Positions 45,214-55,521 of a DNA stretch of 64,000 nt are shown here, one piece after another. The notes beneath the pieces are model-generated. The model saw nothing but the letters and a program-made list of their open reading frames with translations. It was not told the DNA's origin and made no database searches. Position numbers and translations under genes: made by a program. Positions within the stretch are counted from its first letter, which is position 1. Every line of letters begins with the position of its first letter. Source of the stretch: an uncultured delta proteobacterium (GTDB taxonomy: Bacteria > Desulfobacterota > Zymogenia > Zymogenales > Zymogenaceae); assembly GCA_963735595.1 (NCBI GenBank), contig CAVTLK010000005.1, positions 576,001-640,000 on the forward strand, in the 5' to 3' direction.

Positions 45214-46620
45214 ATGGCAGAGGAAATAAAAAAGAAGGCGGTAAAGATACTCGTCGTCGATGACGAGATCAATATGCGCAATCTCTTTTCCATCATGCTC
45301 GCCAAAGAGGGTTATGATGTAGATACGGCCGAAGACGGCGCGGCGGCAGTCTCCCTGCTTGACACGAAGATATACGACCTGGTCATCACCGATATCATGA
45401 TGCCCAGGATGAAGGGCACCCAGCTCCTGAAAAAGGTAAAGGAGGTGCACCCGGAGACGGTCGTGATCATGATTACCGCCTACGCCTCCACGGAGAGCGC
45501 CGTCGAGGCGATGAAGGAGGGGGCGTATGACTACATCACCAAACCGTTCAATGTCGAAGAGATCAAGGTGATTATCCGCAAGGCGCTCGAACGGGGTAAG
45601 CTCGAACGGGAGAACCTTTTCCTCAAACGGGAGCTGGACAAAGGACACAGTTTTGAGAACATTATCGGGCTGTCGCCGGTAATGCAGAAGGTCTTTGACC
45701 TGGTGGAGCGGGTCTCCCAGACCAAGACTAATATCCTTGTCTCCGGCGAGTCGGGGACGGGAAAGGAATTGGTCGCCCGCGCAATACATAACAAGAGCCA
45801 GCGAAAGAACCGCCCCTTCGTCGTAATAAACTGCGGCGGTATCCCCGAGAACCTCCTGGAGAGCGATCTCTTCGGGCACGTGAAGGGGTCATTTACGGGG
45901 GCGATATCGCACAAGGAAGGCCTCTTTGAGGTCGCCGATACGGGCACGCTCTTCCTGGATGAGGTGGGCGAACTAACCGCGCCCATCCAGGTTAAGCTGC
46001 TGCGGGCAATACAGGAGAGGACCTTTAAGCGGGTCGGAGGGACCGAGGATATCTCGGTGGATGTCAGGATTATCGCCGCCACCAATAAGGACCTCGAGCA
46101 GGAGGTGATCACAGGGAAGTTCCGGGAAGACCTGTACTGGCGGCTTAAGGTCATCGAGGTGAAGCTTCCTCCGCTGCGTGAACGGAAGGAAGATATCGTG
46201 CTGCTGGCGGAGCATTTCCTGATGAAGTTTGCGGCCGAGCAGGGCAAGGAGATAAAGAAGATATCGTCCTACGCGCTGGAGGTGCTCAAAGACTATGCCT
46301 TTCCCGGAAACGTGCGGGAACTGGAAAACATCATCGAGCGCTCGGTGGCGCTTGAGCATTCCAATATTGTGCTGCCGGAGAGCCTGGCGCTATCGGTATA
46401 TAAGTGGAACGGGGCGGTAGACCGGAAGGAGAAGGCCGCCGATATTCTTACCAAGGGATTTTCGATGGAACGCTATATCGAAGACCTGGAAAAGGAGCTC
46501 ATCAGCGAAGCGCTTGCGCGATGCGGCGGCAGGAAGAAAGACGCCGCGGGGATCCTGGGCATCAGCTACTGGGTGCTGCTGCGCAAAATAGAAAAGTACG
46601 GGCTGGGCACGGGGCATTGA
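45214..46620 (+). CDS. pilR: sigma54-dependent response regulator, PilR-like
   Basis: REC domain, GESGTGKE, GSFTGA, FLDEV, FPGNVREL, Fis-type HTH; directly upstream of a sigma54-driven pilin gene. Confidence 0.82.
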   Translation: MAEEIKKKAVKILVVDDEINMRNLFSIMLAKEGYDVDTAEDGAAAVSLLDTKIYDLVITDIMMPRMKGTQLLKKVKEVHPETVVIMITAYASTESAVEAMKEGAYDYITKPFNVEEIKVIIRKALERGKLERENLFLKRELDKGHSFENIIGLSPVMQKVFDLVERVSQTKTNILVSGESGTGKELVARAIHNKSQRKNRPFVVINCGGIPENLLESDLFGHVKGSFTGAISHKEGLFEVADTGTLFLDEVGELTAPIQVKLLRAIQERTFKRVGGTEDISVDVRIIAATNKDLEQEVITGKFREDLYWRLKVIEVKLPPLRERKEDIVLLAEHFLMKFAAEQGKEIKKISSYALEVLKDYAFPGNVRELENIIERSVALEHSNIVLPESLALSVYKWNGAVDRKEKAADILTKGFSMERYIEDLEKELISEALARCGGRKKDAAGILGISYWVLLRKIEKYGLGTGH

Positions 46621-46805
46621 CGGCCGGCCATTGACCGCGAATACGCCGGCAATTGCCGCAATTGCCGTTTCGCAATAGATTTTTGTAAATGCGCAATTTG
46701 AGCACCGCGGCCGACCGTGCCGTCAAGGGGCGGTTTGGGGAAATTTTTTTATGTAATGAATCCGGTGTGTTACGAGCAGGTAAATGGAACATGGGGAAAT
46801 CAGAT

Positions 46806-46821
46806 TGGCATTGATATTGCA
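46806..46821 (+). promoter_or_regulatory. sigma54 (-24/-12) promoter of pilA
   Basis: TGGCATTGATATTGCA: GG-N10-GC. Confidence 0.85.
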
Positions 46822-46865
46822 GTTATAACTCAGTGCATGACTTTAAAAAGAAAGGAGGTGTCTTC

Positions 46866-47345
46866 ATGCTAAACAAGATGCGTAACAGAAAGGGTTTTAC
46901 CCTCATCGAGTTGATGATTGTTGTGGCTATTATCGCGATCTTGGCGGCCATTGCCATCCCTAACTTCCTCAAGTTCCAGGCCAAGTCCAAGCAGTCCGAA
47001 GCCAGGACGCTGTTGACCGGTGTGTACGAGGCGGAAATGGGCTACTTCGCAACGGAGAATACGTTCTCGGGCGATGCGGAATTGATCGGCTTTGAGCCGG
47101 CGTCCGTCCCCAAGTACTACATCAACCCGGCGGATGCGGGCTGGATTACCGCGAATGCGATTTACCACTTCACCTCGACGACCTCGGCCAACATCGACCG
47201 GGACAACTTCAGGGATGGATGGGTCGAGACCGATGACTCCCGCGAGCCTCAGAACATTCTCCCCTCGACTATGGACCGTGACGCTGGTGCCGATCCCGGC
47301 ACGCAGGTTACCGGTGATACCGGCGACGACGTCTCGCAGGATTGA
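46866..47345 (+). CDS. pilA: Type IVa major pilin
   Basis: KG|FTLIELMIVVAIIAILAAIAIPNF; strong SD AGGAGGT; own terminator. Confidence 0.93.
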   Translation: MLNKMRNRKGFTLIELMIVVAIIAILAAIAIPNFLKFQAKSKQSEARTLLTGVYEAEMGYFATENTFSGDAELIGFEPASVPKYYINPADAGWITANAIYHFTSTTSANIDRDNFRDGWVETDDSREPQNILPSTMDRDAGADPGTQVTGDTGDDVSQD

Positions 47346-47381
47346 TGCTGATCACGTAGCTTTTTTCCTATCGGAAAATCT

Positions 47382-47414
47382 AAGGCAGAGTTTGAAAAAC
47401 TCTGCCTTTTTTTT
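47382..47414 (+). terminator. Intrinsic terminator after pilA
   Basis: AAGGCAGAGTTT-GAA-AAACTCTGCCTT followed by a T tract. Confidence 0.88.
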
Positions 47415-47436
47415 AATTTTATGATATATATAACCC

Positions 47437-49593
47437 ATGAAGATTATCCCGCTCCTGAAACGAAACGCCTCCCGCTATCTTCCGTGGCTTGTCTTCTCGG
47501 CCTCTTTTTTCGTCTACCTCGTCACGCTGTGCCCAACCTTCTACTGGCGCGATTCCGCGGAATTTGTTGACGCCGCCTTTGCGCTCGGGGTGGCGCACCC
47601 GGCGGGGTTCCCGACCTACCTGCCGCTGGCCAATCTCATGACCTACCTTCCCTTTGGGCCGATTGCCTTCAAGATAAACCTGCTGTCGGCCTTGATGGGC
47701 GCGGGCGCGTCGGTCGCCCTTTATTTCCTGACCCTCCGCCTTATCCGTTCCCTCGGGGGAGAGCAGAACGGCCGCGCCCTTTTCTTCTCGTCGGCGACGG
47801 CGCTGGCGTTTGCCTTCTCCTTTTCGTTATGGGAGAGCTCCGTATCGGCCGAGGTCTACGCCGGTATAGCAATGGTGTCGGCGCTTCTGCTGTTATGGTC
47901 GATTATCTGGGCCGAGACGGCCGATATACGGTTCCTGTTTGCGGGATCGTTTCTCCTGGGGCTTGCCGCGGGGCTGCACGCCACCGCCGCCTTCTTTGCC
48001 CCGGCGCTGGTGTTGTTCGTTATCCTCCACTACAAGGGAAGGCTCAAGCCCGCCGATCCGGTCATGATTCTATTCTTCTTTATCGTGGGATTTTCGATCT
48101 ATATATACCTTCCCTTTCGGTCGGCGGCCGGTCCCCACATAGACTGGGGAAACGCGAAAACCTTAGACGGCTTTCTTGTCCAGATCCTCGACAAGAAGGA
48201 TACGGCGTATCACTTCGCGGTATCCCGGGGCGGATTATTTGAAAAGATCGGCATATTCTTTTACATACTTATTCGGGAGCTGACCCCCGTCTGGCCGCTC
48301 GCAGCGCTCTATGGGTTTTACCTCGTTTTCAGAAAGAACTGGCGGCTGTTTTCTCTTCTTACCCTCTTCGGCGCGGTGCACATCGCCTTCTTTGTCTGGT
48401 ATTGGAGCGTCGGGACGATATATATGCCGTTCTACGCGGCGGTCATGGCGGCGGGCGGAGCGGGGCTCTTTTTCCTGTACGAGCGGCTGTCTGCAATCGG
48501 CGCTCGAGGGGTAAACGCGGCGCGGATTCTGGCCGTCATCGCGGCGGGCCTGGTCTGCTTCAATCTCCTGTTCAACTTCAGCAAGCTAAACAAATCCGAC
48601 TATTATGCGGCGGAGGATTTCACCAACTCCGATTTCTACCGGTTCGACTACGGCGCCATGGTCGTGACAAACCTCCTCTGGCCGAACTTCTTCTGCCTCC
48701 AGGACGTGGAGCGGCTCCGTGAGGACCTGGTAATTATAGCGGTCGGCGATATCATCCAGCCCGACTATTTCAATCGCTTTACCGCGGAAAAATTTCCGGA
48801 CCTGATCGTTCCGGAAATGCACCTGGACAGGAGCACCGGTTTGACCTTCCTCAAGAACCTGATATTCCTCAATTATCGGCAACGTCCGGTATATATCGGG
48901 CCCGATGAGGATATCGTCATGAAACTCACCTATCGGCTGCTGCCGGAGGTCCTCTTCTTCAAGCTGGTCACTGAGGAGGAGGCCAAGGCGCCGCCGGACC
49001 GGTATTATGAAGAATACGTTGAGCGGATCGATCATTTTACCAAGCGACAGATAGAGACGATGGGTGACGATTTTTTCACCGACCAGGTCTTTGCCGATTA
49101 CTACCGGGTCGTTTTTAACACGCTTTCCTCGTTTTTCATTCACCGGAAATTGTGGGACGTGGAACTGGAGGTGTTACAATACTCGGCGCTTTTCAACTCT
49201 CTAACGGCCAAACAGATGGTCGATACCGGGATCGCGCTAATGAATCTCGGAGAGTTTGCCGATGCCGAGGGTGCGTTCAAGAAGGCCCTCGCGATAGAGC
49301 CGACCGACAGGCGGGGGCATGTTCAACTCGGACGTCTCTACCTCCTGAAGAAACAGTACGAAGATGCGCAGAAGGAATTCGAGACGGCGCTCCGGCTGGG
49401 CGACAAGTTCTCCGCCTACTACGGCATGGGCATGATAGCCTATGACCGGGGGGATACGGCGGAAGCCCAAAGGCTCCTGAAGAAGGCAATGGAATCGGCA
49501 AACTCGAAGACCCCTGAACCGGAAAAGGAGGCGGTCCGCACGATCCTCTACGAACTTGCGGACACCGCCGGCGCCCCCTCAGACGACCTATGA
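47437..49593 (+). CDS. DUF2723 / TMEM260-like multi-TM GT-C glycosyltransferase with C-terminal TPRs
   Basis: TLCPT...DSAEF...LGVAHPAGFPTY, SAEVY, YIYLPFRS, DWGN; about 11-13 TM segments; TPR-like helices at the C-terminus. Confidence 0.82.
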   Translation: MKIIPLLKRNASRYLPWLVFSASFFVYLVTLCPTFYWRDSAEFVDAAFALGVAHPAGFPTYLPLANLMTYLPFGPIAFKINLLSALMGAGASVALYFLTLRLIRSLGGEQNGRALFFSSATALAFAFSFSLWESSVSAEVYAGIAMVSALLLLWSIIWAETADIRFLFAGSFLLGLAAGLHATAAFFAPALVLFVILHYKGRLKPADPVMILFFFIVGFSIYIYLPFRSAAGPHIDWGNAKTLDGFLVQILDKKDTAYHFAVSRGGLFEKIGIFFYILIRELTPVWPLAALYGFYLVFRKNWRLFSLLTLFGAVHIAFFVWYWSVGTIYMPFYAAVMAAGGAGLFFLYERLSAIGARGVNAARILAVIAAGLVCFNLLFNFSKLNKSDYYAAEDFTNSDFYRFDYGAMVVTNLLWPNFFCLQDVERLREDLVIIAVGDIIQPDYFNRFTAEKFPDLIVPEMHLDRSTGLTFLKNLIFLNYRQRPVYIGPDEDIVMKLTYRLLPEVLFFKLVTEEEAKAPPDRYYEEYVERIDHFTKRQIETMGDDFFTDQVFADYYRVVFNTLSSFFIHRKLWDVELEVLQYSALFNSLTAKQMVDTGIALMNLGEFADAEGAFKKALAIEPTDRRGHVQLGRLYLLKKQYEDAQKEFETALRLGDKFSAYYGMGMIAYDRGDTAEAQRLLKKAMESANSKTPEPEKEAVRTILYELADTAGAPSDDL

Positions 49594-49689
49594 GCGCGTC
49601 CTTTGCGGCTAACCGGGGAAGGCCGCAGGTTGATGCCGCTCACGGGGCGGCAAGGTGACGGTAAGGGATAATCCCGAGAGATACCAATT

Positions 49690-50640
49690 ATGCGAAAAAA
49701 GAAGAGGCTGTGCGTAGTCATTCCGGCGTATAACGTCGGCCCGCTGGTGGTTCGGGTGCTGGACGGGCTTCCCGATTTCATTGACCGGGCGGTCGTCGTG
49801 GACGACGCGAGCACCGACGATACCGCGCGCCGGGTCTCCGAATACCGGGGACGCTTCGCGGGGGAGGTGTCCCTCATCACGCTGCCGAAGAACTCGGGGG
49901 TCGGCGCGGCTATCGCCCGGGGGTACCGGGATGCCCTGGAACAGGGAGAGGACGTGGCGATTGTCATGGCCGGTGATAACCAGATGGACCCCGGTGATCT
50001 CCCGGCGATCATCGACCCGGTGGCAAGCGGCCACTGTGACTATACCAAGGGGAATCGGCTCTTCATGGGCGGGGCCTGGAAGATGATCCCCAAGGTCAGA
50101 TACCTCGGCAATTCCTTCCTGTCGCTGTTGACCAAGGTCGCATCGGGGTACTGGCACGTGGCCGACTCCCAATCCGGATATACCGCGATCAACCGGGAGA
50201 CGCTGGCCAAGATCGACCTTGACGACATCTACCCCCGCTACGGGATGCCCAACGATCTACTCATCAAGCTCAACATCGTCGGCGCGCGGGTCAGAGACGT
50301 GCCGGTCAAACCCGTCTATAACGTGGGGGAAAAATCGGGGATCAGGCTCTACAAGGTAATTCCCACGATTACCTGGCTCTTGATTGAGGGCTTCTTTACA
50401 CGGATGACCAGGAAGTATATCATCTTCGATTTTCATCCGCTGGTCTTCTTCTACGTCATGGGCCTGGTTTTGGCCCCCGTCGGCGGGATATTCGGGTTAT
50501 ACCTCTTTGTCTTGAGGGTCCTCGGGCACGGGGTGGCCGTTACGAGCGCGCTGTTCGCGGCCTTCCTGTTCATCTCGGGGCTCCAGTCTCTCTTCTTTGC
50601 CATGTGGTTCGATATGGAGTATAATAAAAACCTCAAATAG
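49690..50640 (+). CDS. GT2 polyprenol-phosphate sugar synthase-like (DPM1/GtrB type) with two C-terminal TM helices
   Basis: VIPAYN, VDDASTD, NSGVGAA, AGDNQMDP, KGNR, DSQSGY. Confidence 0.85.
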   Translation: MRKKKRLCVVIPAYNVGPLVVRVLDGLPDFIDRAVVVDDASTDDTARRVSEYRGRFAGEVSLITLPKNSGVGAAIARGYRDALEQGEDVAIVMAGDNQMDPGDLPAIIDPVASGHCDYTKGNRLFMGGAWKMIPKVRYLGNSFLSLLTKVASGYWHVADSQSGYTAINRETLAKIDLDDIYPRYGMPNDLLIKLNIVGARVRDVPVKPVYNVGEKSGIRLYKVIPTITWLLIEGFFTRMTRKYIIFDFHPLVFFYVMGLVLAPVGGIFGLYLFVLRVLGHGVAVTSALFAAFLFISGLQSLFFAMWFDMEYNKNLK

Positions 50641-51648
50641 TTACGTATATTGCAAGGCGATCGGGAAAAGAGCTGCGGCGCGGCGCCGGCCGGCAGATCT
50701 TTGATAGTTAGATGGACCCTCCTATGAATAAAACCCGGTATCAACTCGGATTCTCGGAACAACACGCCGACGAGATGTACGATGAAAAAAAGCGAAGAAT
50801 AAAGGGTAAGAAGACGCTTTCGGTGCTCAGTGACGTCCTATCAAAAGAAGGCAAAAATCCCGCGGCTCTGAACCTGCTGGACATAGGCTGTTCCACCGGG
50901 TTTATGACGAAATTATACGCCCGGCAATTTAAAAAAGTGACGGGAATTGACATTGACAAGGACGCGGTTCTTTTCGCCGGCGCGCGTAATCGCCCCATAA
51001 ATACCCGCTATGTAGTATCCGATTGCCTCCAGACCGGTTTTTCCCCCGAGTCTTTTGATATAGTAACGTGCACCCAGATCTACGAGCACGTTCCGGATGC
51101 ACGGCAATTGATGAGGGAGATACGCCGGGTCCTCAAGACGGGCGGTATCTGTTACTTTGCCGCGGGCAATCGACTCAACCTCGTTGAAGGGCACTATGGC
51201 CTGCCCCTGCTATCGGTTATGCCAAAGACGCTCGGCCATGTTTACCTGAGAATCACCGGAAAGGGAAAATACTATTACGAGAGGCATTTGACTCTGATGG
51301 GGCTCAGGAGGCTGGTAAGGGATTTTGAGATAATTGACTACACGAAGAAAATTGTCGATGAACCGGCCCGTTATAGCGCCACCGATATGCTTATCCCCGG
51401 AACCGTAACGCATCGAATTGCCCGCATTGCAATCAGGGCGGCCTATTTTCTCTGCCCGACATACATATGGGTTTTAAGGAAGAGAATTCCGTAAAAGGCC
51501 TCCCACGTGCGTCGTGGAGCCGTCGGCCTATTGTGAGACGCGGCGCAGCGGTTATGAAGAGAGTGCTGTTTGCCGCCTTCCCGTTCTTCTCCGGGCTCCA
51601 GTCTCTCTTCTTTGCCATGTAGCTCGATCTGGAGTATAATAGAAACTT
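50550..51648 (+). repeat. 84-bp imperfect direct repeat (50550-50633 and 51565-51648) duplicating the 3' end of the GT2 gene
   Basis: Manual alignment gives 74/84 identity with a 28-nt perfect core; TGG>TAG in the second copy. Confidence 0.85.
50724..51494 (+). CDS. Class I SAM-dependent methyltransferase, lower GC
   Basis: LLDIGCSTG, GIDID, SFDIV, YEHV, RVLKTGG. Confidence 0.9.
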   Translation: MNKTRYQLGFSEQHADEMYDEKKRRIKGKKTLSVLSDVLSKEGKNPAALNLLDIGCSTGFMTKLYARQFKKVTGIDIDKDAVLFAGARNRPINTRYVVSDCLQTGFSPESFDIVTCTQIYEHVPDARQLMREIRRVLKTGGICYFAAGNRLNLVEGHYGLPLLSVMPKTLGHVYLRITGKGKYYYERHLTLMGLRRLVRDFEIIDYTKKIVDEPARYSATDMLIPGTVTHRIARIAIRAAYFLCPTYIWVLRKRIP

Positions 51649-51681
51649 ACGGCGATACGATATAGAAACCTGACGGCGTGA

Positions 51682-52869
51682 ATGAAAATCCTGCTGGTAA
51701 CGAGCTCTTTTCCCCGCTGGCCGGGGGATTGGGCGGGGGTATTTATCCTGAGCCTCGGGCGCGCCCTGGCGGTGCGCGGGCACGAGATAACCGTCCTCTG
51801 CCCTCATGCCCGGGGCCTGCCGCTGCGCGACGAGATGGACGGCGTACGTATCGAGCGTTTTCGCTATGCGTGGCCGGCCTCACTTCAGACGCTGGCCTAC
51901 GGCGGGGGCATGCTTAACAACGTGAGACAGAACCGGCTGCGGATGCTCCTGGTCGTGCCGTATGTACTGGCGCTGGGGATGCGAATGAGGGCGCTGTTAC
52001 GCAGACATGATATCGTCAATGCGCATTTCCTGATTCCCCAGGGGTTTACGGCCCGGCTCTTTAATGTCCGGGCCGTCGTCAGCCTCCACGGGACCGACGT
52101 GAACCTGAGCATGGGGGCGCTGGGTCGGCGCATCGTCCGCTTCGGCCTTTCGGAGGCGCCGGCGGTGACCGCCAACAGCGCGGCCACCGCGGCCCGCGCG
52201 GCCGGGATCGTCCGCGGCGATCGTCTGAGGGTTATCCCGATGGGCGTCGATGCCGCGGCTTTCCGCCCGGCGGGAAAACGGGCCGAGGCGTTCGGAAAAG
52301 ATGCTCCCCCCAGGATCATCTGTGTGGGGCGGCTCATCGCCCTCAAGGGCCAGCGGCACCTGATCGGGGCGCTGACGGCGATACGGGAGCAGATTCCCGG
52401 CGCGACCGTTACGCTGGTAGGAGACGGCCCGGACAGGGATTCATTGCTGCGGCACGCCCGGAAGTCCGGCGTTGCCGACGCCGTACGATTTATCGGTGAG
52501 GCGCCGCACGAGCGGATCGCGGGTCTCCTGGGCGAACACGATATCTTCGTATTGCCCTCCGTTATTCTCCCGAGCGGGGAGACCGAAGGGCTGGGAACGG
52601 TCCTCCTGGAGGCAATGGCGGCCGGGGTTCCCGTTATCGGGAGCGCGGTGGGGGGGATACCCGACATCATCAGGGACGGACGAAACGGGCTCCTGGTGCC
52701 CCCGCAGTCGCCCGACGCGATCGCCCGGGCAGTGGTGCGAATCGCGACGGACAGGGACCTGCGGGAGAGCCTGACGGAATCGGCCCGGCGGGACGTAGAG
52801 GAGCGCTTTTCCTGGGAGGTCATAGCGCAACAATTCGAGAAACTCTTTACTGACGTGATCGGCGAATAA
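51682..52869 (+). CDS. GT4 glycosyltransferase
   Basis: SLHGTD, VGRLIALKG, EGLGTVLLEAMAAG. Confidence 0.92.
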   Translation: MKILLVTSSFPRWPGDWAGVFILSLGRALAVRGHEITVLCPHARGLPLRDEMDGVRIERFRYAWPASLQTLAYGGGMLNNVRQNRLRMLLVVPYVLALGMRMRALLRRHDIVNAHFLIPQGFTARLFNVRAVVSLHGTDVNLSMGALGRRIVRFGLSEAPAVTANSAATAARAAGIVRGDRLRVIPMGVDAAAFRPAGKRAEAFGKDAPPRIICVGRLIALKGQRHLIGALTAIREQIPGATVTLVGDGPDRDSLLRHARKSGVADAVRFIGEAPHERIAGLLGEHDIFVLPSVILPSGETEGLGTVLLEAMAAGVPVIGSAVGGIPDIIRDGRNGLLVPPQSPDAIARAVVRIATDRDLRESLTESARRDVEERFSWEVIAQQFEKLFTDVIGE

Positions 52870-52874
52870 ATATT

Positions 52875-53840
52875 ATGGATACGGTACAAGAAGGAAAAGA
52901 CGTCCTTGCCATTGAGCGGGACGCCGTCGGCAGCCTCATAGACCGCCTCGGGGATGAATTCGTCCGGGCGGTGGATTTGCTGTCAGGCGTCAAGGGCCGC
53001 ATTATCATCACGGGGATAGGCAAGTCGGGCATCGTGGCGCGGAAGATAGCCGCCACCCTCTCCTCTACCGGGAGCCCGGCGGTCTTTCTCAACTCGGCCG
53101 AGGGGCTCCACGGTGATATTGGGGTGGTCACCGCTGACGACCTGGTGCTTGCCCTCTCCTACAGCGGCACCAGCGAGGAAGTGTTGAAGCTCATCCCCTA
53201 TTTTCGCTGGATGAAGGTACCCATCATCGCGATGACCGGGGCGGTGAAGTCCACGCTGGCTCAGCAGGCTGATGTTGTCCTGGACATCCGGGTCGATAAG
53301 GAGGCCTGCCCCTGGGATATCGTTCCCACCGCCTCCACCACGGCGGCCCTTGCGCTCGGGGACGCCCTGGCGGTAACACTCATCAAGAAAAAGGGGATCG
53401 ACCTGTCCGATTTTGCGCATCGGCATCCCGGCGGGGCCATCGGCAGGCAGATACTGTTGTCGGTGGCCGATCTTATGCACGGGGGCGACCGGTGCCCGAA
53501 AGTGGGCGAGACGATCCTCCTGAAAGAAGCTATCTACGAGATGACGAGCAAGGGGCTGGGCATGGCCACCGTGACCGGCAAGGACGGCGCGCTCGTCGGC
53601 GTTATTACCGACGGCGATCTCAGGAGGGTATTCCAGAAATACGATAACCCCCTCATGATGGAGGTCGGCGAGCTCATGGGGAGAAACCCAAAGACCATCA
53701 AGGCCGATAAGCTGGCGGCGGAGGCTCTCAGGGTGCTGGAGGATCACGCCATTACGTCGCTGGTCATCATCGATGACGGCAATCGTCCGGTGGGGGTCAT
53801 CCACATTCACGACATCCTTAAGGTGGGCATAACGCTGTGA
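52875..53840 (+). CDS. kdsD: Arabinose-5-phosphate isomerase (KpsF/GutQ; SIS plus CBS)
   Basis: GIGKSG, HGDIG, EACP, PTASTT, HPGG, CBS pair. Confidence 0.92.
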   Translation: MDTVQEGKDVLAIERDAVGSLIDRLGDEFVRAVDLLSGVKGRIIITGIGKSGIVARKIAATLSSTGSPAVFLNSAEGLHGDIGVVTADDLVLALSYSGTSEEVLKLIPYFRWMKVPIIAMTGAVKSTLAQQADVVLDIRVDKEACPWDIVPTASTTAALALGDALAVTLIKKKGIDLSDFAHRHPGGAIGRQILLSVADLMHGGDRCPKVGETILLKEAIYEMTSKGLGMATVTGKDGALVGVITDGDLRRVFQKYDNPLMMEVGELMGRNPKTIKADKLAAEALRVLEDHAITSLVIIDDGNRPVGVIHIHDILKVGITL

Positions 53841-54820
53841 AGACGATCCTGGTTGTCGGCGGGGCGGGCTACATCGGGAGCCACGCGGTAAAAGCCCTCA
53901 TGGCGGAGGGCTATCACCCGGTCGTGCTGGATAACCTCTCCCGCGGCCACCGGGACGCGGTGCTCTGTCCAGATTTCATCCAGGCAGACCTGGCCGACGG
54001 CACAGCCCTCGCCCGCGCCTTTATCGATTACCGGGTCGATGCCGTTATGCACTTTGCCGCGTTGACCTACGTCGGGGAATCGGTGGAGGATCCCGCCAGG
54101 TACTACAACAACAACGTCGTGGGATGTATCAACCTCCTTTCTGCCATGCGGGAGGCCGGTACCGACAAGGTCATATTCTCTTCCACGGCCGCCGTCTATG
54201 GGAATCCCCGGGAGATTCCCATCACCGAAGATCACCCCCGTGACCCGATCAATCCCTACGGCATGACCAAGTACGTCATGGAACGGGCGATGGAGGACTA
54301 TTCGACCGCCTACGGGCTCAGGTTTGTGTCGCTTCGCTACTTCAACGCGGCCGGCGCCGATCCGGACGGCGAGCTGGGTGAGCGCCACGATCCCGAGACC
54401 CACCTGATCCCGGCGATACTCATGGCGGCCGGCGGCAGGCGCGACGAAATCGTCGTCTTCGGCGACGACTACCCGACGCCCGACGGCACGTGCGTCCGGG
54501 ACTATATTCACGTAACCGACCTGATAGACGCGCATCTGTGCGCCGTTGACCGGCTTTTTGCCGGAGGAGGCAACGGATACTACAACCTCGGCAGCCAGCG
54601 GGGACATTCGGTCAGGGAGGTCATCGAGGCCGTTCGGGCGGTGACCGGCCGCTCGTTTCCCGTCAGGATCGGACCCCGGCGGGCAGGAGACCCGCCGACG
54701 CTCGTCGCCTCTTCGCAGAGGGCGGCGGCCGAGCTCGGGTGGCGTCCCGCCCACACCGATCTCACGGACATGGTCGGGACCGCGTGGCGGTTCATGCTGA
54801 AGCGGGGAATGGTCGGATGA
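53837..54820 (+). CDS. galE: UDP-glucose 4-epimerase
   Basis: GGAGYIGSH, SSTAAVYG, YGMTK, LRYFN, DGTCVRDYIHV. Confidence 0.93.
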   Translation: MKTILVVGGAGYIGSHAVKALMAEGYHPVVLDNLSRGHRDAVLCPDFIQADLADGTALARAFIDYRVDAVMHFAALTYVGESVEDPARYYNNNVVGCINLLSAMREAGTDKVIFSSTAAVYGNPREIPITEDHPRDPINPYGMTKYVMERAMEDYSTAYGLRFVSLRYFNAAGADPDGELGERHDPETHLIPAILMAAGGRRDEIVVFGDDYPTPDGTCVRDYIHVTDLIDAHLCAVDRLFAGGGNGYYNLGSQRGHSVREVIEAVRAVTGRSFPVRIGPRRAGDPPTLVASSQRAAAELGWRPAHTDLTDMVGTAWRFMLKRGMVG

Positions 54821-55521
54821 AGGTATGGGGGGTGGTTCCGGCCGCGGGCGCGGGCACACGGATGGGTACGGGGGAGCCCAAGCAATACCGGGAGGCGGCG
54901 GGGGCGCCGATCCTGATACATACGCTGAGGGCCCTGCTGGATTCGGGGGCCGTTGAGGGGATCACGGTGGCGGCCGCCGCCGACTGGATCGACCGCGCCC
55001 GGGAACTCGTGACCCGGTATCTGACAGATGCGGCGCCCGTTTCGGTCGTTGCGGGCGGGGCAACCCGGCAGCAGTCCGTCGGCCGGGCGCTGATGTCGCT
55101 GGCGGGTACGGGGATTGAGATCGTCGTAATCCACGACGCGGCGCGCCCCCTGGTGACGGGCCGGGCCGTTCGGGACGCCGTGGAGGCGGCCCGGCGGCAT
55201 GGGGCGGCGGTGGCGGCAGTCCCGGCGGCGGAGGCCTCCTGCCTGACACGGGACGGCCTGGTTGCCGAATATATCGACCGCGGCCGCCACGTCATCATCC
55301 AGACGCCGCAGGCCTTTCGCTACGACCTGATCATGAAGGCCCACGAACGGGCCGCGGCAGACGGGATAACCGACGCCGTGGACGATGGGACGTTAGTCTT
55401 CCGGCTCGGCGAACCGGTGGCGGTTACCGACGGAGACCCGGATAACATAAAAGTCACCTACCTGACGGACGCCCTGAGACTCGAGAGAATAGGGGTGCCG
55501 GCCGACAGGGACGGCGCGTGA
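54817..55521 (+). CDS. ispD: IspD/TarI-family cytidylyltransferase
   Basis: AAGAGTRM, PKQY, GGATRQQSV, IHDAARP, QTPQAF, NIKVT. Confidence 0.8.
   Translation: MKVWGVVPAAGAGTRMGTGEPKQYREAAGAPILIHTLRALLDSGAVEGITVAAAADWIDRARELVTRYLTDAAPVSVVAGGATRQQSVGRALMSLAGTGIEIVVIHDAARPLVTGRAVRDAVEAARRHGAAVAAVPAAEASCLTRDGLVAEYIDRGRHVIIQTPQAFRYDLIMKAHERAAADGITDAVDDGTLVFRLGEPVAVTDGDPDNIKVTYLTDALRLERIGVPADRDGA

Follow-up and report, generated by a model that had tools for sequence, protein, structure and literature searches.

The transferases described for pilin glycosylation include TfpO/PilO and PglL, Wzy_C-type (PF04932) enzymes that use undecaprenyl-pyrophosphate (Und-PP) glycans, and TfpW, which belongs to the pilin arabinosylation system of Pseudomonas aeruginosa group IV strains. 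In Pseudomonas the genes for both TfpO and TfpW come directly after pilA, and TfpW is described as a GT-C glycosyltransferase with ∼11 predicted transmembrane (TM) helices and C-terminal tetratricopeptide repeats (TPRs) that moves a lipid-delivered sugar onto Ser/Thr residues of the pilin (bioRxiv 10.1101/2020.04.19.049825). Here we consider a locus with a comparable layout, positions 45214..55521 of a 64,000-nucleotide stretch of DNA (contig CAVTLK010000005.1, referred to in what follows as the window) from an uncultured delta proteobacterium of the phylum Desulfobacterota, in which the gene following pilA encodes a protein related to human TMEM260.

Human TMEM260 (CAZy GT117; structures 9RQL, 9RQM and 9RQN) is the described enzyme with which this protein must be compared in most detail. 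A cryo-EM study (bioRxiv 10.64898/2026.03.17.711096) identifies D441 in the Rossmann-like domain as the base, mutation of which abolishes activity, places D52 and H67 in donor binding and sugar recognition, and lists R264 and Y267 as essential and R355 as helpful; it further gives the donor as monophosphate-linked, the TPRs as the element that binds the peptide acceptor, and the acceptors as IPT domains with a proline/glycine sequon. Only distant bacterial homologs are mentioned in a second report on the human enzyme (PMC10214176). Among the titles listed by searches of the open literature, subscription journals not being covered, there was no substrate report for a bacterial TMEM260/DUF2723/GT117 enzyme and no report joining TMEM260 and pilin.

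Results

Our reading of the locus, drawn from sequence comparisons and a predicted structure, is that the GT-C protein likely O-glycosylates the major pilin at the periplasmic face of the inner membrane with a polyprenol-phosphate sugar supplied by the adjacent GT2, and we put the probability of this at roughly 0.6. The three genes concerned are:

46866..47345, + strand: pilA, type IVa major pilin with an N-methyl motif; 149-residue mature chain from 46896; likely acceptor
47437..49593, + strand: TMEM260-like GT-C of 718 residues; PF11028; membrane domain, Rossmann-like domain and TPRs
49690..50640, + strand: GT2, DPM-synthase/AglJ-like, with two C-terminal TM helices; predicted polyprenol-phosphate sugar synthase

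The original prediction, made from this DNA alone, had named the 718-residue protein a TMEM260/DUF2723-type GT-C, an identity that is confirmed. The protein matches PF11028 with 100.3 bits over residues 39-198 (cut-off 24.2), contains DSAEF at residues 39-43 and HPAGFP at residues 54-59, and ends in TPRs; on its own it finds human TMEM260 with an E of 3e-23, and a profile of 59 bacterial sequences matches human 9RQL end to end (positions 18-650 of 652, E 1.6e-125). A predicted model of good quality indices (pLDDT 91, pTM 0.88) has its best structural matches in Pmt1-Pmt2 (Z 26.7, root-mean-square deviation 3.6, 364 residues aligned), ArnT (Z 26.2, 4.6, 437 aligned) and STT3B (Z 25.4, 4.3, 427 aligned), with ALG12 also among the top fold matches and PglB, STT3 and ArnT returned by Foldseek. 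The human structures 9RQL, 9RQM and 9RQN are not among the fold matches listed, their presence in the searched libraries being uncertain. A protein atlas gave the PF11028 assignment and nothing beyond it, and the closest named relatives carry the labels delta proteobacterium (91%) and Candidatus Zymogenaceae (76%). The protein is a member of the TMEM260-like PF11028/GT117 family with a GT-C fold, having in common with the human enzyme the GT-C membrane domain, the Rossmann-like domain, the TPRs and the residues D39 and H54 discussed below; it differs from TfpO/PilO and PglL in giving no match to Wzy_C at E 0.01. Its gene is the only PF11028 gene of the genome; of the 351 genomes of the phylum 57 have PF11028 above cut-off, as do 8 of the 9 other genomes of the family.

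In order to place the protein among its relatives and to score linkage to pilin genes two samples were used. The first comprised the loci of phylum matches with E below 1e-9 plus 80 related loci from the genome collection, 160 open reading frames (ORFs) in all, 155 after removal of 5 identical ones, of which 149 were long enough for a FastTree tree; a row was counted as evaluable if 1.5 kb upstream were present or a pilin was seen, and as linked if a pilin lay within 2.5 kb. The window protein falls in a clade of 20 rows (support 0.98) in which 15 of 18 evaluable rows are linked, 14 of them with the pilin within 400 bp, and a further, non-evaluable row (L024; L and G numbers are our handles for loci and genomes) has a truncated pilin at a contig end. 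A sister group of 8 rows contains 6 that are linked, and the remaining 121 rows give 16 out of 109. The second sample, 78 metagenome loci reduced to 75 rows, returned a clade of 20 rows (support 0.995) with every one of the 16 evaluable rows linked, as against 0 of 40 for the 55 rows outside it; these loci were picked by clade motifs and may overlap with the genomes, related rows do not count as independent, and the support values of FastTree tend to be too high. By chance alone a pilin would be expected nearby in roughly 0.6-1.3% of cases (3.63 Mb contain 6 pilin-motif genes), and the linkage of the clade spans eight families of the phylum. Conserved synteny with pilin genes had been proposed as a check of the prediction, and it is found: this branch of the family occurs almost only beside pilin genes. 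One locus, L116, is labelled Gammaproteobacteria, its GT-C grouping tightly with that of a Levybacteria record that has the same pilin array, and is possibly a binning error (L116 and L084).

The same question can be asked from the side of the pilin. A search of the phylum with the first 60 residues of the window pilin, a query that is biased to similar pilins, found a window-like pilin in 47 of 351 genomes at E 1e-13, of which 41 were evaluable (five contig ends and one unfetched record were excluded). The gene beside the pilin is TMEM260-like in 16 of these (in one more it lies within 1.4 kb), Wzy_C in 6, with TPR matches in 4 of the 6, and an unclassified multi-TM protein with TPRs in 4, with something else in 14. 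None of the six genomes with Wzy_C in the slot has PF11028 above cut-off. The position after pilA is also that of TfpO/PilO, and the alternation of families of lipid-donor transferases in a single slot is the best indirect evidence for the pilin as acceptor; it is the clade-specific linkage together with the shared slot that makes the pilin the likely substrate. The window protein resembles TfpW, as that enzyme is described, in being a multi-TM GT-C with C-terminal TPRs encoded directly after pilA, but the TfpW motifs DDX (first periplasmic loop) and YX6PFX7P occur in 0 of 37 aligned sequences, so that TfpW membership by motifs is rejected, and its neighbour is a GT2 as opposed to the D-arabinofuranose (D-Araf) genes of TfpW. 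By analogy, the window locus would be functionally comparable to TfpW, with an enzyme of another family in its place.

When ten multi-TM neighbours were scanned against protein families, a single weak PMT_2 hit was the only one of interest. At four loci (L188:2430-8968, L190, L192 and L181) the pilin is followed by multi-TM proteins with TPRs that have no Pfam match in the membrane part, L188 carrying in addition a second multi-TM protein and a GT2-methyltransferase fusion; these proteins are possibly another pilin glycosylation family.

Discussion

A number of observations weigh against the assignment of the GT-C as a pilin transferase fed by the GT2, and they concern in turn the active site, the donor, the acceptor, the linkage itself and transcription. 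Mapping of the human residues by profile position puts D52 on D39, the Asp of DSAEF, and H67 on H54, both invariant in 19 of 19 clade sequences. The remaining functional residues are not in register: R264 maps to D252, Y267 to D255 and R355 to T327 (K253 and K254 adjoin D252 and may replace R264), and D441 falls on a two-residue gap after T411-N412, in a loop that is two residues shorter than in the human enzyme. Since residues 405 to 422, flanked by D404 and D423, include neither Asp nor Glu, D441 is lacking wherever the gap is put; strand 408-411 of the model joins helix 415-423 via a short loop. D441 is found in 0 of 16 genome and 0 of 14 metagenome rows of the clade (0/30), compared with 137 of 159 rows outside the clade and sister group (91/112 genome, 46/47 metagenome), and in the sister group the position is D in 3 rows and D or E in 5. 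The human catalytic base is lost throughout the pilin-linked clade, while the donor-site residues D39 and H54 are kept. Among the linked rows outside the clade are records of Patescibacteria, Eisenbacteria, Zixibacteria and Elusimicrobia, so that a retained D441 and a linked pilin also occur together. The Asp of DSAEF, which the prediction had singled out for comparison with TMEM260, is therefore only partly as expected: it is conserved, as D39, but it matches the donor-binding D52, and the human base has no counterpart.

A clade that is catalytically dead or weak, and in which the protein serves as a TPR-bound pilin chaperone or assembly accessory like TfpX/TfpY/TfpZ, would account for the clade-wide loss of D441, for R264, Y267 and R355 being out of register and for a pilin that is not Ser/Thr-rich. 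We nevertheless regard it as improbable. D39, E42, H54, Y141, R228 and D430 are invariant across 37 aligned clade and sister sequences, E139 and H181 are nearly so, and the donor loop of the clade has gained an Asp-Arg/Lys-Lys-Asp motif (D252 in 16 of 19 sequences, D255 in 14 of 19); a conserved donor site along with a new loop motif is unexpected for a decayed site. Glycosyltransferase genes travel with the clade enzyme, and other GT-Cs use a first-loop Asp, a precedent for a first-loop base here since D77, the catalytic Asp of yeast PMT1, is aligned with D52 (PMC10214176).

On the donor side the original prediction of a DPM1-like synthase holds in some respects and fails in others. The GT2 is like DPM synthase, GtrB and AglJ in having a GT-A domain with C-terminal TM helices (hydrophobic segments 250-268 and 277-295), its sole solved relative is an archaeal synthase of dolichol-phosphate-linked mannose (Dol-P-Man), 5MLZ (E 2e-11), the best NCBIfam model for it is AglJ, and it follows GT-Cs. 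Against this, it scores 73 bits where the AglJ cut-off is 325, and it has AGDNQM in place of the DADxQx signature (PMC9943897); the first position is A in 118 and N in 2 of the 120 homologs listed. Orthologs of the GT2 at E below 1e-100 are present in 35 of 351 genomes, in 17 at a TMEM260-like locus, in 5 directly after an STT3 or PMT-type GT-C, in 1 at a locus of pilA with a multi-TM/TPR gene and in 1 directly after a pilin, with 11 having neither a GT-C nor a pilin beside the GT2 in the DNA examined. Moreover, the GT2 was not found at E 1e-40 in two genomes, G030 and G069, that both have a pilin-linked clade member. This distribution fits a donor synthase that is shared among GT-C families and is not a strict partner of any, and by its relatives the GT2 is a plausible lipid-linked donor synthase.

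Several of these points would also be accounted for if the protein were a pilin-glycosylating oligosaccharyltransferase using an Und-PP glycan made elsewhere, with the GT2 and GT4 of the locus performing ordinary envelope-glycan steps. It sits in the same slot as the Wzy_C-type transferases, a priming sugar transferase (Bac_transf), WecG, a GT2 and a GT4 are encoded near pilD, the window GT2 lacks the canonical DADxQx and is missing from some pilin-linked loci, and donor-site residues differ from those of the human protein. Even so, the donor of human TMEM260 is a monophosphate, D52 and H67 of that enzyme are conserved here, the GT2 has a Dol-P-Man synthase as its only solved relative, and it follows GT-Cs of several families, so that we consider an Und-PP donor quite unlikely. 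As to the sugar, neighbours at other GT2 loci include Gfo/Idh/MocA-hexapeptide and amidotransferase genes, which are typical of amino-uronic sugar pathways and therefore lend no special support to mannose; nothing points to mannose as the sugar.

The polyprenol-phosphate route also calls for a flippase, and GtrA was not found in a search of the genome, a difference from TfpW as well. Two genes on the minus strand point towards the cluster (window:55675-57516), one for a DedA/VTT membrane protein and one for a GalT/HIT-like protein that matches no family. DedA proteins can move undecaprenyl phosphate, and the DedA/VTT gene is a possible flippase candidate. Nor is the window GT-C the only candidate transferase, the genome having 5 PMT_2 and 2 Wzy_C matches and a multi-TM gene with TPRs near pilD.

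On the acceptor side the prediction had drawn attention to a Thr-rich tail and an FTSTTS strand in the pilin, an argument that is weak: the last 30 residues contain 4 Thr, 2 Ser and 7 Asp/Glu, so the tail is acidic, and FTSTTS is the general strand that precedes the GNxDxD motif of such pilins. The Ser plus Thr fraction of the globular part is 0.18, below the median of 0.20 in 14 control pilins, and Ser/Thr enrichment of the window pilin is rejected; for groups of pilins the medians are 0.24 (linked) and 0.20 (control), with p 0.09. At mature position 93, Thr in the window pilin, Ser or Thr is found in 18 of 22 TMEM260-linked pilins, in 10 of 10 beside another membrane transferase and in 4 of 14 other pilins. 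The pattern, seen at one position out of the five that were tried, does not hold up in a phylogenetic control (sign test on 4 independent pairs, median p 0.5), and Thr93 as an established acceptor is rejected because it is insignificant after this control; it is a weak candidate site, useful as a lead only. The window pilin has no IPT domain and no match to the human sequon, the 93% complete genome contains no IPT/TIG match, and the sequon matches once in 7272 long six-frame stretches, that stretch being unvetted as a gene, so that the human substrate class seems to be unavailable in this genome. Since base, donor-loop residues and substrate class all depart from the human case, the protein should not be classed as a TMEM260-type O-mannosyltransferase.

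The genome contains two other pilin genes that could be further substrates, an intact one at G000:C2:212137, ∼41% identical to PilA, and a frameshifted one at G000:C1:284300-284750.

As regards linkage, three clade rows with at least 5.8 kb of upstream sequence have no pilin (two rows in L043 and one in L142). These are clade members without D441 (L043:6894-10072, a tandem pair, and L142:5929-8130), and they bring up the case of an active GT-C that works on a different acceptor, be it envelope proteins or a lipid or polysaccharide as for ArnT/GtrII-type enzymes, with its adjacency to pilA being regulatory or historical. Most sampled members of the family are indeed away from pilins, the top fold matches include ArnT and ALG12, kdsD and galE adjoin the locus and a Wzm-type transporter follows in L022. 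On the other hand, the linkage within the clade is nearly absolute across eight families of the phylum, with further cases in other phyla, and TPRs, the binders of the peptide acceptor in the human enzyme, are present. A non-pilin acceptor is, in our judgement, a rather remote prospect, and we continue with the pilin as the likely substrate.

The last of the adverse points is that a terminator-like hairpin separates pilA from the GT-C gene. The regulatory features are:

45214..46620, + strand: pilR, REC-AAA-HTH sigma-54 activator of NtrC type; likely driver of pilA
46806..46821, + strand: sigma-54 -24/-12 promoter consensus of pilA, TGGCA-N6-TTGCA
47382..47408, + strand: intrinsic-terminator-like hairpin of 12 bp with a T-run, separating pilA from the GT-C gene

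When two PilR proteins encoded at pilS-pilR-pilA loci in the phylum are compared with this genome, the window pilR is the best match (54% and 58%, with 47-49% for the runner-up), and pilR lies immediately 5' of pilA also in L021, L022, L023, L025, L026, L027 and L034; pilT, pilC, pilS-like and pilD genes are located elsewhere in the genome. The sigma-54 promoter that had been predicted ahead of pilA is well supported, as its consensus is matched only once in the window (at least one match occurs in 7 of 100 shuffles) and such a site also precedes the pilin in eight loci (L021, L022, L023, L025, L026, L027, L034 and L037). A scan for hairpins with T-runs gave 14 sites where 10.4 are expected; with a total so near expectation only the quality and place of the 47382..47408 hairpin are notable. 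One metatranscriptome contained a small share of the sequence words, in short pieces only that are mostly <95% alike, and has no bearing either way.

If the GT-C is a pilin transferase, the steps might be as follows. PilR and sigma-54 would drive pilA, with weaker transcription of the transferase genes through or beyond the hairpin. The GT2 would load a nucleoside diphosphate (NDP) sugar onto undecaprenyl phosphate (Und-P), the GT4 and the variable methyltransferase, if participants, would act at the cytoplasmic lipid-linked stage, and the lipid-linked donor would then be flipped. At the periplasmic face the TPR and Rossmann-like domains would hold the membrane-anchored pilin while the donor is attacked by one of the pilin's Ser/Thr residues (the best guess being mature Thr93) and the role of D441 falls to Asp39 or to Asp252/Asp255, which are specific to the clade. 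A likely benefit, by analogy, would be a pilus masked from phage, pilin glycosylation being described in bioRxiv 10.1101/150227 as a shield of pili against phage in Pseudomonas.

A considerably more specific version, which we think doubtful, would have the clade as a rewired, pilin-dedicated TMEM260/GT117 branch in which D441 has been deleted and the Asp-Arg/Lys-Lys-Asp loop gained, and which transfers en bloc, in archaeal style, a short Und-P-linked glycan, built by GT2 and GT4 and variably methylated, to a fixed threonine of a pilin strand. If true, this would be a new bacterial O-glycosylation route, with two catalytic solutions within one GT-C family, and would provide the first bacterial substrate of the family found in the open literature. 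For pilin glycosylation by the GT-C as such, the consequence would be a further enzyme family beside TfpO, PglL and TfpW. Bacterial TMEM260/DUF2723 proteins are widespread and the present locus is a small testable set of one acceptor, one transferase and one donor synthase. The loss of D441 in the pilin-linked clade, moreover, is a direct test of how GT-C catalysis is split between a first-loop Asp and a soluble domain, a question that bears on the mechanism of the human disease enzyme.

Other Genes of the Locus

All genes of the region are on the + strand, in the order pilR, sigma-54 site, pilA, GT-C, GT2, methyltransferase, GT4, kdsD, galE and ispD, and the order as well as the identities of the last five, as given in the original prediction, agree with ORF and family scans. 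The features beyond the start of the GT2 gene are:

50544..50631, + strand: 88-nt direct repeat, copy 1, equal to the 3' end of the GT2 gene
50712..51494, + strand: class I S-adenosylmethionine (SAM) methyltransferase in a variable slot; accessory
51559..51646, + strand: 88-nt direct repeat, copy 2, degenerate, 88% identical; likely scar of a methyltransferase insertion
51682..52869, + strand: GT4 glycosyltransferase, a frequent follower of this GT2, also at loci without a TMEM260-like gene
52875..53840, + strand: kdsD/kpsF arabinose-5-phosphate isomerase; sole copy, probably housekeeping
53837..54820, + strand: galE UDP-glucose 4-epimerase; could supply Gal or GalNAc, a candidate role
54817..55521, + strand: ispD, above the TIGR00453 cut-off; sole copy, methylerythritol phosphate (MEP) pathway, probably housekeeping

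The GT4 follows the GT2 in all 8 of 8 family loci and in several unrelated ones. A methyltransferase occupies its slot in 6 of 9 family loci; the slot is variable and its occupants are mostly non-orthologous, for which reason the methyltransferase as a core part is rejected, and the copies of the GT2 3' end that bracket it make it look like an insertion. GT4 enzymes and SAM methyltransferases use cytoplasmic substrates, and neither protein here has an N-terminal signal-like segment, so that both would act before transfer; extension or methylation after transfer, as first proposed, is topologically unlikely. That GT2, GT4 and methyltransferase should all work ahead of transfer has a precedent in the Agl pathway of Haloferax, where sugars are added on dolichol monophosphate, with a methyltransferase involved, and then transferred (PMC3871713). 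The genes kdsD, galE and ispD are beside the cassette only within the family, and as the genome has single copies of kdsD and ispD these two are rejected as parts of the system and are probably housekeeping genes.

Further observations concern glycosyltransferase loci elsewhere. In L209:6047-9304 and L215:6069-9237 an STT3/PglB-type oligosaccharyltransferase gene is directly followed by an ortholog of the GT2 (62% identical in L209), possibly a bacterial N-glycosylation pair that draws on a monophosphate-linked lipid donor, as some archaea do. Elsewhere the genome has a second locus of pilus and glycosylation genes (L226:4700-18900; G000:C2, ∼383-398 kb), which encodes a GT4, a GT2, WecG, a B12 radical-SAM protein, a multi-TM protein that combines TPRs with a weak PMT_2 match, a priming sugar transferase, an ABC transporter and pilD. 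Its multi-TM gene adjoins the 3' end of the cassette in L027 and L028.

Some genes appear to be interrupted. A transglutaminase-like gene upstream of pilR (window:43683-45184) is present as two ORFs of 285 and 239 residues where relatives have one ORF of ∼500 residues, pyrB (window:41457-42432) is likewise split, and there are further breaks in pilT and pilC of this genome, probably caused by errors in sequencing; in L023 and L025 the GT-C gene, too, is split. On the minus strand, window:37412-38873 contains a kinase-like ORF, and the short ORF ahead of it is perhaps the interrupted beginning of a fused methyltransferase-kinase gene, resembling the O-antigen terminator WbdD.

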